A DNA stretch of 64,000 nt, taken from positions 252,326 to 316,325 of the forward strand of contig CP064989.1 of NCBI GenBank assembly GCA_016699875.1, written 5' to 3'. The position numbers and the translations under genes are program-made. Shown piece by piece: positions 2,560 to 39,054 of this stretch (the first letter of the stretch is position 1; every line of letters begins with the position of its first letter). The notes under the pieces are model-generated. The model did no database searches and was not told the origin of the DNA. It worked only from the letters and a program-made list of their open reading frames with translations. This DNA comes from Candidatus Moraniibacteriota bacterium. GTDB lineage: Bacteria; Patescibacteriota; Minisyncoccia; Moranbacterales; UBA1568.

Positions 2560-3513
2560 TCACTCAGCATCTCGACCCAAAATATCCCGTGAACGGAGAT
2601 AGAAGGGAATAGCGGAGAAGCTCACGATCATCTGTATAAACCGACTCGTCACAGCAACGGCGACCGCCGCCTCGACAGAGGTGCCAAGATACCCGAAGAA
2701 TGTAGCATACGCCCACTCTTTTACGCCGATATTATTGATACTGATCGGAATATTCGAGACAATTGTCACTAAGAAAATAACACCGAGATACTCAATCACA
2801 TGCACCTCGCCACCCAGCGCCCGAAAGAGCACGAGGTTTGCAAGTCCCACACCGACAAGGTTAAACAAAAGCGACCACCCCAGCACCGGAACCGTCGTCC
2901 GACGAAACGGATAGCGCATCACTTCCCGAATCAATCGCTGCACGCGTTCCGGAAGTTTCCCTAAAAAAAAATGGGCGGATGGCATTTTCCGAAGAACCGG
3001 CAGAGCGAAATCAAACGAAAGCGAGCCAAGTATGGCGATATCCAAGAAAAGCCAGAACGGGTTTGCAAACACCAGCTTCAAATGGAATAACGAAAAAATA
3101 ATAGCAAACACCATCGCCGCCCAAATTCCCGTAAACCGATCAAAGAGCGCCGTAGAGAGTGCCGGCGACAATTTTCCGTCCCGTTTTCCAAGCCACAGCG
3201 TCCGATACGTATCGCCACCGATAGTTGAAGGAAGAAAATTATTAATAAACGTACCCGTAAGGTACGCACGAAAGAAATCTCGGTACGGGCGATCAAATCC
3301 CTTGGATCGCGCGATAGTTTGCCATTTTCTCGACGAAATTGCGATGCCCGCAAGAAGAATGCAGATGTAGAGGGAAAGAAACGGCAAATCCACTTCCGAA
3401 ATTCTCCGAACAACCTCCGCCCAGTTGATACGCCATACGAGCCACAGAACAAACCCGCTCGACACCAAGAGTTTCAAGAAAAAAGAGAGTCGTTTTCGGA
3501 GAGCTGTTTTCAT
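2560..3513 (-). CDS. Flippase-like / lysylphosphatidylglycerol-synthase-TM-like (UPF0104) polytopic membrane protein
   Basis: About 8 predicted TM helices. The sequence resembles the membrane domain family that commonly accompanies GT2 and GT4 glycosyltransferases. The start overlaps the GT4 stop by 4 nt. Confidence 0.55.
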   Translation of the reverse strand: MKTALRKRLSFFLKLLVSSGFVLWLVWRINWAEVVRRISEVDLPFLSLYICILLAGIAISSRKWQTIARSKGFDRPYRDFFRAYLTGTFINNFLPSTIGGDTYRTLWLGKRDGKLSPALSTALFDRFTGIWAAMVFAIIFSLFHLKLVFANPFWLFLDIAILGSLSFDFALPVLRKMPSAHFFLGKLPERVQRLIREVMRYPFRRTTVPVLGWSLLFNLVGVGLANLVLFRALGGEVHVIEYLGVIFLVTIVSNIPISINNIGVKEWAYATFFGYLGTSVEAAVAVAVTSRFIQMIVSFSAIPFYLRSRDILGRDAE

Positions 3514-4685
3514 GATTTTGAAGATATCGCTTCTTCGTAAGATACCCGATACGCCTTTGCCACTTCATTCCAACCCAAGCTCTCGGCACGGCGCCGACTC
3601 TCTTCACCGTATCGCTTCGCTTCATCCGAATGCGACGCAAGAAACGCAATTTTTTCAGCGATATGTTTCGAGTCGCGCATACGGACAATGCAACCGTTCA
3701 CACCGTCTTCTACCAATTCGCGTGTCCCGCCGGTATCCGTCGTAATAATCGGGAGTCCGCAGGCAAGCGCTTCAAGCACGTTATTGCTCATCCCCTCATT
3801 GAGAGAGGGTAGTACGTACACATGTGCCCGATGATAGAGCGGCACCACTTCATTGTGCGGCACCCGCCCGACAAATCGCACCCGATCAGAAAGGTCATGC
3901 TCCGCCACAAACGCCTCGAGCGACTCGCGTTCATGCCCATCGCCGGCGATATCCAAGAGAAATCGCCTCTTCTCCGAATTTTTCAACAAATGCATCGCCT
4001 CGAGCAATGACCGCAAACCCTTTCGAGGCGTGAGACGCGCAATAGCCAATACCTGAAATGGCTCGGAGACACCGTCTGAATAATTCCTCGGAACCGAGAA
4101 AAATTCCTTGATATCAACACCATTGCGCACGACCGCAATATCTCGCGACGACTCCGTAAGGAGCGCGAGTGTCCGAAGTCCCTCGCTGTTTGCGATTACC
4201 TTCGCCGCGTTCCGCCAAATAAACCGCGTCACCGGACGCAAGAAGAGGTAGAGATTCTTAAATCGCTCGCTATACCCAGGCACATCCGAACCGCGCAACG
4301 ATACGATATACGGGAGATGAAACTCCATAGAAAGCAGACGCATCACCAACCCCGATGGAACCGAAAAAAACGCATGCATACAATCGAACTGCTCCCGCTT
4401 CAAGAGCTGCCGTGAAAACATCCACGACTTCCAAGAATACGCAAGCAGATTCGCCTTCGACTGAAAATGAAGATCGCGCGCGCCATCTTTCTTCCCGACC
4501 GGGAGCCGCTCTATCTTGATATTCGGCGCCGGATATTCCGTCCGGTGAACACCGTCAACTGACGACGTCACCAGCACAATCTCCATATCCGAGAACACCG
4601 CAAACTCCCGAAGCATGTACTCCGTCGCATTCCCCGCTCCGCCTCCCAACGGCGGATACTCATAATTATGAATGAGGAGTTTCAC
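3510..4685 (-). CDS. GT4-family glycosyltransferase (GT-B fold)
   Basis: C-terminal block ...PSLNEGMSNNVLEALACGLPIITTDTGGTRELVEDGVNG matches the EX7E motif of retaining GT4 enzymes, and the N-terminus carries the Gly-rich GGGAG start. Confidence 0.8.
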   Translation of the reverse strand: MKLLIHNYEYPPLGGGAGNATEYMLREFAVFSDMEIVLVTSSVDGVHRTEYPAPNIKIERLPVGKKDGARDLHFQSKANLLAYSWKSWMFSRQLLKREQFDCMHAFFSVPSGLVMRLLSMEFHLPYIVSLRGSDVPGYSERFKNLYLFLRPVTRFIWRNAAKVIANSEGLRTLALLTESSRDIAVVRNGVDIKEFFSVPRNYSDGVSEPFQVLAIARLTPRKGLRSLLEAMHLLKNSEKRRFLLDIAGDGHERESLEAFVAEHDLSDRVRFVGRVPHNEVVPLYHRAHVYVLPSLNEGMSNNVLEALACGLPIITTDTGGTRELVEDGVNGCIVRMRDSKHIAEKIAFLASHSDEAKRYGEESRRRAESLGWNEVAKAYRVSYEEAISSKS

Positions 4686-6948: not shown

Positions 6949-7899
6949 TTATTTCCGTTCGATCACTTCTCGAATACCGTAATTCATCGAATGATGACTT
7001 CTGTAGTACGCACGAATCATCATATCCGTCATGAGACCAAAAATAAAGAGCTGAATGCCCGCAAGAAGCAAGAAGACGCCGATCATAGGCCAAATGCGAT
7101 CCGAAAGCGATGCGCCAAAGAAGACTTTCTCCACAAACATCCAAAAGAGAATCCCCGATCCCAAGATAGAAAGCAAAAAGCCGCCGCCGCCGAAGAGGTG
7201 CACCGGGCGATGCGAGTACTTCCGCCAGAACCACACGGCGAGCATGTCGACAAATCCCTTCACGCTCCGCTTCCAGTTGTATTTGGTGACGCCATGCACG
7301 CGCGGATGGTGCGAAACCGGCACCTCCGCCACACGGAAACCCTTAATCTCAAGAAGCGCCGGAATAAACCGATGCATCTCACCAAAGAGATCGAAGTCCT
7401 CGAAACATTCCCTTCGAAACGCTTTGAGACTGCAGCCCGAATCGTGAATATTGTCGTGAATGAGAATGGTACGCAGCATGTTCGCGCCGCGCGAAAAGAT
7501 CTTCTTGCTCAAAGAATCTTGCCGCTTCACCCGCCATCCGGAGACCACATCATAGCCCTCGTCGAGCTTCGCAAGAAGAAGCGGGATATCAGCCGGATCA
7601 TTCTGCAAATCGCCGTCCATCGTAATCACAATATCGCCCGTCGCCCGCTTGAAACCTGCGTCAAACGCCGCGCTCTGTCCGAAGTTCTTGCGGAATACCA
7701 CGAGCGTAAGTGGCGAAAGCGCATGGCATTTCTCGAGCGTCGCGTCCCTCGACCCGTCATCGACAAAGATGATCTCATATAACTCACCGAGCTTCTCCAA
7801 GGATTCCTTGATGCGCCGATGGAGTTCCTCGACATTCCCCTCTTCGTTATAAAGCGGAACAACAACCGAATACCGAACCCGCCCGGAATCTGTTTCCAT
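6949..7899 (-). CDS. GT2 polyprenyl-phosphate glycosyltransferase (DPM1/ArnC-like)
   Basis: YSVVVPLYNEEGNV, FVDDGSRD and DGDLQNDP (DxD) motifs, with two C-terminal TM helices. Confidence 0.8.
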   Translation of the reverse strand: METDSGRVRYSVVVPLYNEEGNVEELHRRIKESLEKLGELYEIIFVDDGSRDATLEKCHALSPLTLVVFRKNFGQSAAFDAGFKRATGDIVITMDGDLQNDPADIPLLLAKLDEGYDVVSGWRVKRQDSLSKKIFSRGANMLRTILIHDNIHDSGCSLKAFRRECFEDFDLFGEMHRFIPALLEIKGFRVAEVPVSHHPRVHGVTKYNWKRSVKGFVDMLAVWFWRKYSHRPVHLFGGGGFLLSILGSGILFWMFVEKVFFGASLSDRIWPMIGVFLLLAGIQLFIFGLMTDMMIRAYYRSHHSMNYGIREVIERK

Positions 7900-37406: not shown

Positions 37407-37443
37407 CCCTTGCATCGCCGCCTTTTTGTGCTACAATCCCAGA

Positions 37444-37470
37444 AAGCCGATCGGCTTTTGTTTTTGTCTT
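37444..37470 (+). terminator. Intrinsic terminator after the GH1 gene
   Basis: aagccgatcggctt palindrome followed by ttgtttttg. Confidence 0.55.
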
Positions 37471-37472
37471 CC

Positions 37473-37507
37473 GGTCCCATCGTCTATCGGTTAGGACATC
37501 AGGTTTT
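37473..37507 (+). repeat. Partial duplicate of the tRNA-Glu 5' half (positions 1-35, ending in the anticodon loop)
   Basis: 35/35 identity with 37819-37853, then divergence. Confidence 0.7.
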
Positions 37508-37569
37508 TCAGTCAAAGACTGACCAGCCTCTGGCTGGCATCCTAGGAAGAGGGGTCGCGGAGGATTTCT

Positions 37570-37815
37570 ATGTACTACACATATATACTCAAAAGCGCCA
37601 AGAAACCCTATCGATATATTGGTTCCACTGAAAATCTAAGGAAGCGACTTCTTGAACACAATCAAGGAAAAACCAAATCCATTCAACACCTCATTCCTTT
37701 TGCACTCGAATATTATGAAGCCTACACAACAAAGAAACTCGCCAGAAAAAGAGAGCTAGAACTCAAGAAGAACAGCTTTAAGAAACGAGAACTTTTTGAG
37801 AGAATCAGCGAATAA
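37570..37815 (+). CDS. Small GIY-YIG nuclease-domain protein (81 aa)
   Basis: YYTYILKS...YIGSTENLRKRLLEHN is a GIY-YIG motif. A strong SD (GGAGG) sits 6 nt upstream. The gene lies between the duplicated tRNA-Glu segments. Confidence 0.7.
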   Translation: MYYTYILKSAKKPYRYIGSTENLRKRLLEHNQGKTKSIQHLIPFALEYYEAYTTKKLARKRELELKKNSFKKRELFERISE

Positions 37816-37818
37816 TCT

Positions 37819-37890
37819 GGTCCCATCGTCTATCGGTTAGGACATCAGGTTTTCATCCTGAAAAGAGGGGTTCGACTCCCCTTGGGACTA
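37819..37890 (+). tRNA. tRNA-Glu (anticodon UUC)
   Basis: Cloverleaf folded by hand: 7-bp acceptor stem (G1-U72), D-stem gtct/ggac, anticodon stem tcagg/cctga, loop ttTTCat, T-arm agggg-ttcgact-cccct. No encoded CCA. Confidence 0.7.
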
Positions 37891-37896
37891 CTTTCT

Positions 37897-39054
37897 ATGA
37901 TCCTCGCGATCGAAACTTCGTGTGATGAAACCGCAGCGGCAGTTGTCGAGAAGTCTGGCGACGCCGTGCGCGTACTCTCAAGTGTCGTCTCATCGCAGAT
38001 TGCGCTCCATGCACCATTCGGCGGCGTCGTTCCCAATCTTGCAGCACGCGAACATACGAAGAACATTGTCCCTGTCATTGAGTCAGCTCTCCGAGAAGCA
38101 TCCGCTTCTATGAAAGATATAGCGGCTATCGCCGTCACCGCAGGACCCGGACTCGCGCCCGCTCTTCAGATCGGCGTCACGGCAGCAAAGTCCCTTGCCT
38201 ATCTCTGGCGGAAACCTCTTCTTCCCATCCACCACATCGAGGGGCACATCTACGCAAATTTCATCAAAGAAGAACAGCCGGCAACCGGAAACCCACACAA
38301 TAGAAAGAGCTACCAAGAGTCAGAAGTCGGGAATGGGGAGTCAAAAAATTCCTTCCCTCTTCTTGCTCTGGTTGTATCCGGAGGACACACCGAACTCGTA
38401 TTCATGCGCGATCATTTCACCTATGACATTCTCGGTGAGACGGAAGATGATGCTGTCGGCGAAGCCTTCGACAAAGTCGCGAAGATGCTCGATCTTCCCT
38501 ACCCGGGCGGTCCCGAAATCGCCAAGAGAGCGGATGCATTCCGAAGAAGCGCCGCATTCTCATCGCACAATTCGGCAAATTTTTCTTTCCCGCGCCCAAT
38601 GAAGGAAAGTGGTGACTACCGATTCTCTTTTTCCGGACTCAAAACTGCGGTGCTCTACTTTCTGAAGAAACACGAGACACAAAAACAGATGGAGAACTTC
38701 ATCAATGCTGTCTGCTTCGAATTCCAAGAGTCCGCGCTCGATGTCCTCATCGAGAAAACTCGCCGCGCCCTCGCGGAATACCATCCTGAAACTGCCATCA
38801 TAGCAGGTGGCGTCTCAGCAAACATCGAGCTTCGCCACCGCATGGGCGAGATGATTGGGCACGATTTTCCAGATACGTGCTTCCTCATGCCACCTTTCAA
38901 ATATTCCCTCGACAACGCCGCGATGATCGGCGCGGCAGCAGTCTTCCGATGGGACTGCCTATCAGACACAGAAAAGAGCCGGACGACTACACTATGGAGA
39001 ACACTCCGAGCTGATCCCAACATGAAACTCTGCAGTATCGGCGTAAGATTATAG
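37897..39054 (+). CDS. tsaD: tRNA N6-adenosine threonylcarbamoyltransferase TsaD (Kae1/YgjD family)
   Basis: MILAIETSCDETAAAV, HIEGHI and GGVSAN. Confidence 0.85.
   Translation: MILAIETSCDETAAAVVEKSGDAVRVLSSVVSSQIALHAPFGGVVPNLAAREHTKNIVPVIESALREASASMKDIAAIAVTAGPGLAPALQIGVTAAKSLAYLWRKPLLPIHHIEGHIYANFIKEEQPATGNPHNRKSYQESEVGNGESKNSFPLLALVVSGGHTELVFMRDHFTYDILGETEDDAVGEAFDKVAKMLDLPYPGGPEIAKRADAFRRSAAFSSHNSANFSFPRPMKESGDYRFSFSGLKTAVLYFLKKHETQKQMENFINAVCFEFQESALDVLIEKTRRALAEYHPETAIIAGGVSANIELRHRMGEMIGHDFPDTCFLMPPFKYSLDNAAMIGAAAVFRWDCLSDTEKSRTTTLWRTLRADPNMKLCSIGVRL

Follow-up and report, generated by a model that had tools for sequence, protein, structure and literature searches.

A Small GIY-YIG Nuclease Gene Nested in a Duplicated and Hairpin-Interrupted tRNA-Glu Gene: A Probable Selfish Cassette That Brings a Replacement for the Gene It Breaks

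We have analyzed a 64,000-nucleotide stretch of a Candidatus Moraniibacteriota genome (assembly GCA_016699875.1, contig CP064989.1, positions 252,326 to 316,325; hereafter, the window), in which an intact tRNA-Glu(UUC) gene is preceded by a small open reading frame (ORF) for a GIY-YIG nuclease and, further upstream, by a partial copy of the same tRNA gene interrupted by a pair of hairpins. The combined evidence suggests that this locus is probably a selfish cassette which, like a free-standing homing-endonuclease gene, inserts itself into a target gene and brings a replacement for the gene that it breaks. This reading is supported by related loci that preserve the complete form of the element, with the two halves of a host tRNA-Glu gene on the outside and a different, intact tRNA-Glu gene within. 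An original prediction made from the sequence of the window had proposed a minimal GIY-YIG insertion that targets the anticodon region of tRNA-Glu and leaves a working tRNA. That proposal is upheld by a recurrent break between tRNA nucleotides (nt) 35 and 36, by the split halves just mentioned and by the occurrence of the design in two phyla, and it gains further support from the base composition of the ORF and from a comparison with a syntenic locus. Mobility and cleavage specificity are what we infer from these patterns.

The Interrupted tRNA Copy in the Window

The exact repetition of tRNA-Glu nt 1-35 at a distance of 346 nt upstream of the intact gene, on which the original prediction was built, is reproduced by ARAGORN, Rfam and blastn-short (E = 3.7e-15, with no other comparable match in the window), and the repeat reaches 38 nt when one mismatch is allowed. 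The two hairpins noticed between the copies are perfect 6-bp stems, each present once in the 64 kb and together forming the only double hairpin of this kind in the window; the Shine-Dalgarno sequence and the ORF were likewise recovered as predicted (Table 1). Beyond that prediction, we found that the upstream copy resumes after the hairpins with a diverged version of tRNA nt 36-53. The hairpin pair (hereafter, the double hairpin, DH) is therefore a 30-nt insert located exactly between U35 and C36, and the upstream copy is a second, 3'-truncated tRNA-Glu copy interrupted by it. In formal terms, the segment inserted between U35 and C36 extends from 37508 to 37853. The intact tRNA is the functional copy, which the cassette either retains or supplies.

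Table 1. Features of the cassette locus (positions are those of the window)
Feature	Position	Strand	Evidence or remark
tRNA-Glu 5' half, displaced or duplicated (nt 1-35, up to anticodon U35)	37473-37507	+	35/35 identical to 37819-37853
Double-hairpin module (DH), 30 nt, between tRNA positions 35 and 36	37508-37537	+	
DH hairpin 1, TCAGTCaaaGACTGA	37508-37522	+	TCAGTC-AAA-GACTGA
DH hairpin 2, CCAGCCtctGGCTGG	37523-37537	+	CCAGCC-TCT-GGCTGG
Stub CATCCTAGGAAGAGGGGT, diverged copy of tRNA-Glu nt 36-53	37538-37555	+	15/18 matches
Spacer	37556-37569	+	Contains Shine-Dalgarno GGAGGA 37559-37564, 5 nt ahead of ATG 37570
Gene for 81-amino-acid stand-alone GIY-YIG nuclease (Slx1/UPF0213 type), 37% GC	37570-37815	+	Pfam PF01541
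Intact tRNA-Glu(UUC)	37819-37891	+	ARAGORN; Rfam RF00005, 59.1 bits; 3 nt past ORF stop

The locus is bordered by a GH1 glycosidase gene on one side and by tsaD on the other. Since tsaD starts at 37897, only 5 nt past tRNA-Glu, there is no space in the window for a right-hand DH or for a displaced 3' half, and the window copy is a recombined, one-sided derivative of the complete element described below. No integrase is encoded at the locus, where the GIY-YIG gene is the sole ORF between the repeats and the neighbors are GH1 and TsaD. Rfam searches, run at a permissive threshold for the window locus and at the gathering threshold for 10 related loci, returned tRNA only, with no intron or ribozyme. 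A promoter scan of the cassette gave no convincing promoter. By eye, a promoter-like TTGCAT-N16-TACAAT is present at 37411-37438, upstream of a terminator-like hairpin (37442-37459, GAAAGCCGATCGGCTTTT) which is followed by a T-run and stands directly before the tRNA 5' half.

Evidence for Insertion

A scan of a genome collection with the protein alone (as a 14-sequence alignment) yielded 72 homologous loci from Patescibacteria and Bacteroidota with protein identities of 55-70% (individual loci and contigs are cited below by L numbers). Two of them, L012 and L013, display the complete form, in which the element carries a whole tRNA-Glu and a second DH and displaces the 3' half of the host gene, features that were not part of the original prediction. 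In tRNA numbering, nt 1-35 of the host gene are followed by a DH, a short stub (nt 36 to ~45), a Shine-Dalgarno sequence, the ORF and the intact tRNA; past a spacer come an inner partial copy of the 5' half (nt 2x-35) and the second DH, after which the host sequence continues with nt 36-73. The ORF (~80 amino acids, aa) is always co-oriented with the tRNA and located 3-30 nt upstream of it.

The acceptor stems tell the two tRNAs of these loci apart. The outer 5' strand GGCCCGT pairs at 7/7 positions with the outer 3' strand (ACGGGCT, ACGGGTC) and at only 3/7 with that of the inner tRNA, whose own strands, GCCGCCA and TGGCGGT, also form seven of seven pairs. Thus, the outer pieces are the halves of a single tRNA-Glu gene that was split at 35|36, and the intact tRNA-Glu of the cassette is a different one. 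At two further loci, L016 and L055, the upstream half pairs with the only intact tRNA at just 3/7 and 4/7 positions, respectively; the host 3' half is gone there, which leaves the cell dependent on the cassette tRNA. The upstream half differs from the intact tRNA at nt 1-7 and is identical to it over nt 8-35 in five loci, a pattern that looks like a conversion tract ending or starting near the junction; it is identical throughout in 19 of 37 loci. Within one element the left and right DHs are nearly identical, and between elements they vary.

Other loci document multiplication and decay of the same design. Tandem units of 337-345 nt that are 98-100% identical are present in L034 and L035, longer arrays in L020, L052, L053 and L065, and ORF-less scars (an intact tRNA followed by a DH and a 3' fragment) are frequent among metagenome contigs. 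The original prediction had named the presence of the same arrangement throughout related genomes as a sign against insertion. The arrangement is indeed seen in many genomes; nevertheless, the chimeric loci, the tandem arrays and the decayed copies speak for repeated insertion and against an arrangement that was fixed long ago.

The same observations bear on a fixed, non-mobile operon, in which an old tandem duplication of tRNA-Glu would have left a tRNA-like leader with hairpins that serve the processing, stability or regulation of a housekeeping UPF0213 nuclease co-transcribed with tRNA-Glu. Such an operon would be in keeping with an arrangement that is widespread and co-oriented throughout, with hairpin stems under selection (see below) and with the commonness of UPF0213 proteins, whose role is unknown, in bacteria. 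However, it is very unlikely in view of the outer tRNA of L012 and L013 that is split around a different inner one, the mismatched halves of L016 and L055, the tandem arrays, the ORF-less scars and truncated ORFs, the patchy spread over two phyla with other tRNAs also targeted, the foreign-looking composition of the ORF, and the occurrence of the same hairpins in T-loop and D-loop fragments that are not followed by an ORF.

Returning to the selfish cassette, a comparison at the window's own position is provided by L049, which shares the synteny of GH1, tRNA-Glu and tsaD with the window. The GH1 and tsaD genes of the two loci are ~80% and ~75% identical, respectively, and the 3' part of the ORF together with the tRNA is 96% identical; the DH, the Shine-Dalgarno sequence and the first 43 codons are deleted from L049. 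This comparison suggests a recent exchange or decay and, with it, possible horizontal movement at the window's own locus. The segment corresponding to 37411-37469 is 98% identical between the window and L049, while the adjacent end of the GH1 gene is only 60-80% identical. A 685-aa ORF (L049, 3382-5439) separates tRNA-Glu from tsaD, which are 5 nt apart in the window, so this junction varies for other reasons too.

Recurrence of the Design Across Loci

The association of the ORF with tRNA genes is nearly general, as it adjoins a same-strand tRNA, usually Glu, in 64 of the 72 loci. In 50 loci the tRNA starts 4-60 nt past the ORF, in 9 further loci it is up to 370 nt away, mostly with a second tandem unit in between, and in 5 it stands just upstream of the ORF; the remaining 8 loci are mostly contig ends, N runs, or interrupted or atypical tRNAs. 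The closer homologues are located at tRNA-Glu, the more distant ones at tRNA-Arg(CCT/ACG), Met, Ser or Pro. Related ORFs with the same design occur at tRNA-Arg, Met, Ser, Pro, Asn, Tyr and Cys, and their hairpins occupy the D-, anticodon- or T-loops.

Most Glu loci have a copy of tRNA nt 1-35 located ~50-100 nt upstream of the ORF, and others have nt 36-73 downstream. The breakpoint of the tRNA fragments is 35|36 in most Glu loci, with each fragment joined there to a 30-nt DH. A DH is present at this junction in ~60 loci (e.g., GGTTTT-TCAGCCaaaGGCTGA-CCACCCtctGGGTGG-CATCCT), and the stub that follows it measures 6-21 nt in loci other than the window and begins with CATCCT. Among 38 distinct DHs, 99.3% of stem positions are paired; both sides have changed in 7 of 12 pairs, a level of covariation reached by none of 500 shuffles (0/500). 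This covariation implies that the stems are under selection, be it as palindromes in DNA or as hairpins in a single strand; the data fit both.

The tRNA-Arg/Met clade of Bacteroidota carries a 20-bp perfect palindrome, CCTGCCTGCCGGCAGGCAGG, in the D-loop. This Arg(CCT/ACG)/Met palindrome design was observed at L052 (2904-4102), L065 (3234-3727), L061, L064, L066-L069, L062 and L057, all from Bacteroidota except for one bin labelled Planctomycetia. At least three tandem units of ORF and palindrome-bearing tRNA are present in L052, and L065 contains full-length tRNA-Arg copies that bear the palindrome and are reported by ARAGORN as "tRNA-???".

Two contigs each carry a pair of divergent GIY-YIG paralogues. 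Those of L033 (3001-3240 and ~3599-3874) precede tRNA-Ser(TGA) and tRNA-Ser(GCT), and those of L051 (3001-3219 and 3308-3544) are embedded in a series of tRNA-Glu fragments whose D-, anticodon- and T-loops contain DHs. A separate observation concerns a conserved segment of ~110-150 nt located 3' of the intact tRNA-Glu (...GGGGAATCGAAcGGGC...GAGCATTCAGCGCTGCCC...GGACTACGAG...) in L001 (~3360-3500), L004 (~3370-3505), L006 (3304-3460), L009 (~3480-3565) and L045 (~3390-3505). It is bordered by an inverted tRNA T-arm/3' end on the left and a direct 3' fragment (nt 56-73) on the right, and in L006 it splits the T-loop of the sole tRNA-Glu copy. Rfam gave no match to this segment at the gathering threshold; it may represent another type of element that inserts into T-loops, or else a gene for a small RNA.

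The GIY-YIG Protein

The 81-aa protein matches the Pfam GIY-YIG family PF01541 (E = 1.1e-15; score 58 bits, cutoff 22.6), in agreement with the original assignment. Residues Y5, Y16, R26, H30 and E62 are invariant in 27 of 27 aligned homologues, H40 and N68 in the 14 closest ones; we take these seven residues (Y5, Y16, R26, H30, H40, E62, N68) to be the equivalents of Y6, Y17, R27, H31, H40, E75 and N90 of I-TevI. Judged by these residues, the active site is intact and the nuclease apparently active.

A profile search of the PDB identified the UPF0213 proteins BH0048 and EF2693 as the nearest solved structures, followed by SLX1 (E-values: 1zg2, 1.7e-13; 1ywl, 1.1e-10; SLX1, 3e-05; I-TevI, 0.013; UvrC, 0.23). 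An AlphaFold2 model (pLDDT 90.5) has the order beta-beta-alpha-alpha-beta-alpha-alpha, and its Foldseek search placed 1zg2 and Slx1 on top (TMq: Slx1, 0.65-0.69; UvrC, 0.58; I-TevI, 0.46-0.48). By sequence and fold, the protein thus belongs to the UPF0213/Slx1-like (URI) branch of the GIY-YIG superfamily. Accordingly, the description of this protein as homing-endonuclease-like holds for the GIY-YIG fold and fails for the I-TevI type, in place of which a bare Slx1/UPF0213-type domain is found. An I-TevI/Seg-type homing endonuclease was rejected, as the GIY-YIG domain fills residues 1-70 and beyond, with no C-terminal DNA-binding domain.

Searches of more specialized collections added little. 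NCBIfam returned sub-threshold matches only (TIGR01453, 20 bits vs. a cutoff of 56), PHROGs had no match, and PADLOC gave two weak partial matches (17 bits over ~25 residues); with PHROGs empty and PADLOC weak, neither a phage- nor a defence-protein label was adopted. An identical protein is annotated in a Candidatus Moraniibacteriota metagenome-assembled genome.

The composition of the ORF looks foreign. Its guanine-plus-cytosine (GC) content is 37% overall and 39% at third codon positions (GC3), compared with a window mean GC of 49.5% and with 53% GC and 57-62% GC3 in the neighboring genes, which places the ORF within the lowest 0.6% of equal-sized window tiles.

A breakpoint within the anticodon, together with repeated tRNA-like fragments that flank a small nuclease gene, might instead be taken to reflect an RNA-level system, in which the GIY-YIG protein would be an anticodon nuclease or toxin acting on tRNA-Glu RNA and the hairpin-bearing tRNA fragments its decoy or antitoxin, comparable to the repeats of type III toxin-antitoxin systems. 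We regard this as extremely unlikely. The fragments follow the sequence of the neighboring gene exactly up to the DH, which is a signature of DNA recombination, DH copies inside coding genes (see below) do not fit an RNA decoy, PADLOC offers no more than the partial matches mentioned above, and we know of no GIY-YIG RNase.

The Double Hairpin as a Dispersed Repeat Family

A flank-free DH pattern, applied to a metagenome collection, matched at least 120 contigs (L082-L201), compared with less than one match expected by chance (an estimate from pattern specificity and collection size). The counts in this section refer to 123 sites among the matches listed. A GIY-YIG homologue is located within 600 nt at 18 of these sites, which is estimated to be far above chance if the gene is assumed to be present about once per genome. 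At least 17 sites fall within incomplete tRNA copies that have an intact tRNA next to them (Ala, Pro, Ile, Thr, Arg, Cys, Ser, Asn, Tyr and Glu) and 42 inside read-through ORFs of at least 150 aa; in silico removal of the DH restored a complete tRNA at none of the 123. Further breaks of tRNA copies by DH-type hairpins are located in the D-loop (~21|22) and in the T-loop (56|57), with the hairpins in either orientation. Overall, the DH is a dispersed repeat that occurs in other tRNA loops as well as in coding genes.

The flanks of these sites show a preference for T at -2 (79%), T at -1 (57%) and A at +2 (66%), with T at +1 in only 4%, and the tRNA-loop sites GGTTTT|CA, GGTTC|GA and CAGTT|GG agree with it. 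Target-site duplication is not general: flanking repeats of at least 6 nt were found at 9 of the 123 sites, some of which lie in heptamer tandem repeats. A DH inside the heptamer repeats CAATTTT and ACAGTAA (L086/L154, ~6007; L087, ~3506) mimics a 7-nt target-site duplication. The type of hairpin follows the clade of the ORF, which suggests mutual recognition of protein and hairpin.

A larger palindromic unit, TTTCCGCCaaaGGCGGATC-[DH]-CGCAAAAACCtctGGCGGAAA, was observed on nine contigs (L085, ~3840-3930; L144, ~7210-7300; L189, ~1060-1150; L082, L104, L132, L168, L169 and L173); it is inside open reading frames where checked, and in L085 the translation through the site stays open. A scan of the viral contigs of IMG/VR, made with the DH pattern and not with the protein, returned one contig with no tRNA on it, where a single DH (L081, 356-385) lies in an AT-rich spacer.

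These properties lend some weight to an account centered on the DH itself, in which it is the 30-nt DH that would be mobile and would also serve the Slx1-like nuclease as its substrate, as in pairs of a repetitive extragenic palindrome (REP) with its RAYT transposase or of a miniature inverted-repeat transposable element (MITE) with its transposase. Two DHs would then bracket and mobilize the ORF and the tRNA as a composite element, and solo DHs would be non-autonomous copies that have spread to T-rich sites, tRNA loops and coding genes. The number of contigs with the pattern and the proximity of GIY-YIG homologues, both above the chance estimates, agree with this account, as do the occurrence of the DH in both orientations and in read-through ORFs (whose frame a 30-nt insert preserves), the preference for T at -2, T at -1 and A at +2, the match between hairpin type and ORF clade (e.g., CCTGCCTGCCGGCAGGCAGG in the D-loop of the Bacteroidota Arg/Met clade), and the kinship of the protein, which among proteins of known function is closest to the structure-specific Slx1 nucleases. 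Nevertheless, we consider it rather unlikely as the explanation of the locus: target-site duplications are not general, the end DHs are direct rather than inverted repeats, the duplication of tRNA segments beside each DH is left unexplained by this model alone, and we know of no GIY-YIG transposase. It is also partly compatible with the selfish cassette and, not being exclusive, may serve as its complement as much as its alternative.

A Proposed Mechanism and Its Weak Points

For the selfish cassette, we envision the following route, in which the cutting of target DNA by the nuclease, the path of repair and the role of the DH are what we infer from the arrangement of the loci: (i) the nuclease would act on a tRNA-Glu gene that has no cassette and cut it within the anticodon loop, at TT|CA; (ii) the break would be repaired by recombination with cassette-bearing DNA, the conserved tRNA halves serving as homology arms; (iii) the cassette tRNA would compensate for the destroyed gene, so that the cell survives; and (iv) the DH at each junction would keep apart the two halves of the old target. 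As the carried tRNA compensates for the broken gene, simple loss of the cassette would be costly. The ORF is always co-oriented with the tRNA and only 3-30 nt upstream of it; the two, therefore, most likely share one transcript.

Simple recombination between the tRNA repeats of the complete element yields all the observed forms, including the one-sided form of the window. Later deletion of one side by such recombination could give either the window form (5' half, DH, stub, ORF and intact tRNA), if the right side is lost, or the ORF-less scar (intact tRNA, DH and 3' half), if the left side is lost, and repeated events could produce tandem arrays.

A broader possibility, which we offer tentatively and hold to be somewhat short of likely, is that an Slx1-like nuclease of ~80 aa with no DNA-binding domain, together with a 30-nt DH, constitutes an unrecognized class of bacterial mobile elements, in which the DH would give the structure that the nuclease recognizes and the carried tRNA fragments the address, while solo hairpins would spread into genes. 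On the same tentative footing, an address contained in the tRNA fragments would let one enzyme family retarget the D-, anticodon- or T-loops of many tRNAs.

Several points weigh against the selfish cassette as we have described it. Cleavage and transfer are deduced from comparisons of loci, namely from the split host tRNA, the conversion-like tracts and the high identity of L049. An 81-aa protein with no DNA-binding domain leaves the sequence-specific recognition of a tRNA gene unexplained, and a hairpin module at both junctions is not predicted by classical homing. The cassette's own intact tRNA bears the presumed target, so that self-cleavage must be tolerated or prevented; the tandem arrays may mean that the cassette tRNA is not spared from cleavage. 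As both 5' halves have the same sequence in the window, the parts of host and element are indistinguishable there. An exact homologue (P0023), present on 18 contigs, has one neighborhood throughout, with no direct sign of recent jumps. Finally, 105 of the 123 DH sites among the matches listed have no GIY-YIG gene nearby, so that the DH may be the primary mobile unit.

If the proposed reading is true, it would explain the position of thousands of small "GIY-YIG nuclease family protein" genes beside tRNA genes of Patescibacteria and Bacteroidota, and it would account for many of the tRNA pseudogenes, truncated or broken by hairpins, that trouble annotation. If, in addition, it is the carried tRNA fragments and the hairpin that contain the address, and not the protein, homology and DNA structure would be the guides of a very small insertion system.

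Comparison With Known Systems

UPF0213/YhbQ and Slx1 proteins provide the best sequence and fold matches and have the same GIY-YIG catalytic residues. Slx1 needs Slx4 and has a RING domain; for UPF0213 proteins we know of no assigned function or genomic partner, and neither family is, to our knowledge, linked to tRNA genes.

Integrase-driven islands and prophages resemble the cassette in their insertion into a tRNA gene, the partial tRNA duplicate and the restoration of a functional tRNA. Their recombinase is of the tyrosine or serine type, and the part of the tRNA that they duplicate is usually the 3' end. An integrase-type tRNA element was rejected here, as no recombinase gene is present between the repeats, the repeat is the 5' half, and the payload is ~0.35 kb. 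A group I intron in the anticodon loop was rejected as well, given that Rfam detects tRNA only, the functional tRNA has no insert, and the copy with the insert has no 3' end.

T4 SegB and other Seg proteins are encoded by free-standing GIY-YIG genes among tRNA genes, cut DNA of the tRNA-gene region, and are inherited preferentially together with their flanking markers (PMC2330249). They differ from the cassette in having a C-terminal DNA-binding domain and residing in phage genomes, with neither tRNA duplication nor a hairpin module.

As for the DH, two reports on mitochondrial double-hairpin elements (DHEs) and GC clusters describe short GC-rich units of two adjacent stem-loops, with conserved stems and variable loops, which are dispersed in intergenic, structural RNA-gene and coding regions and suspected to be mobile by an unknown mechanism (PMC10085805, PMC2800124). 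Rickettsia palindromic elements are alike in kind, being short palindromic units that also occur within ORFs. The DH has the marks of such DHE-, Rickettsia- or REP-like mini-elements, namely conserved stem-loops and dispersed copies in tRNA, ORF and intergenic contexts; this is a resemblance of kind, with no sequence homology expected. Unlike DHEs, the DH measures 30 nt and coincides precisely with the breakpoints in tRNA loops, and there is a statistical link between it and a single family of nuclease genes. A REP/RAYT system was rejected, as the associated protein is a GIY-YIG nuclease and not an HUH (Y1) transposase. A double-hairpin repeat family tied to a candidate enzyme offers a testable handle on the movement of mini-palindromes such as DHEs and Rickettsia palindromic elements.

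We found no account of such a cassette in bacterial tRNA loops, or of a hairpin family linked to it, in the searchable literature, which is incomplete, so that an earlier description is possible; the cassette is also absent from a recent survey of tRNA introns in Patescibacteria.

The closest known parallel in strategy comes from the mobile ORFs (mORFs) of fungal mitochondria, in which an endonuclease ORF is lodged in atp6, atp9, cox2 or nad3 (Allomyces macrogynus atp6; Glomus atp6, atp9, cox2 and nad3) and carries a foreign replacement C-terminus, leaving the native end as a remnant beside a functional hybrid gene (PMC3630166). The endonuclease of the Glomus atp9 mORF is of the GIY-YIG type, and the foreign and native parts differ in sequence, which indicates horizontal transfer (PMC3630166). 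Both systems share a free-standing endonuclease ORF within an essential gene, a foreign copy of the interrupted part, and a native part displaced alongside. The replacement gene part is evident in L012 and L013 (and accompanied by a mismatched upstream half in L016 and L055); since the window copies are identical, this likeness rests on the related loci. The cassette differs from mORFs in its bacterial host, in a target that is a tRNA gene broken in a loop, in its capacity to carry a whole tRNA, in an 80-aa bare-domain nuclease, and in the conserved DH at every junction. The strategy to "break an essential gene but bring a spare" would thereby extend from fungal mitochondria to bacterial tRNA genes, in a cassette of only ~0.35-0.5 kb.

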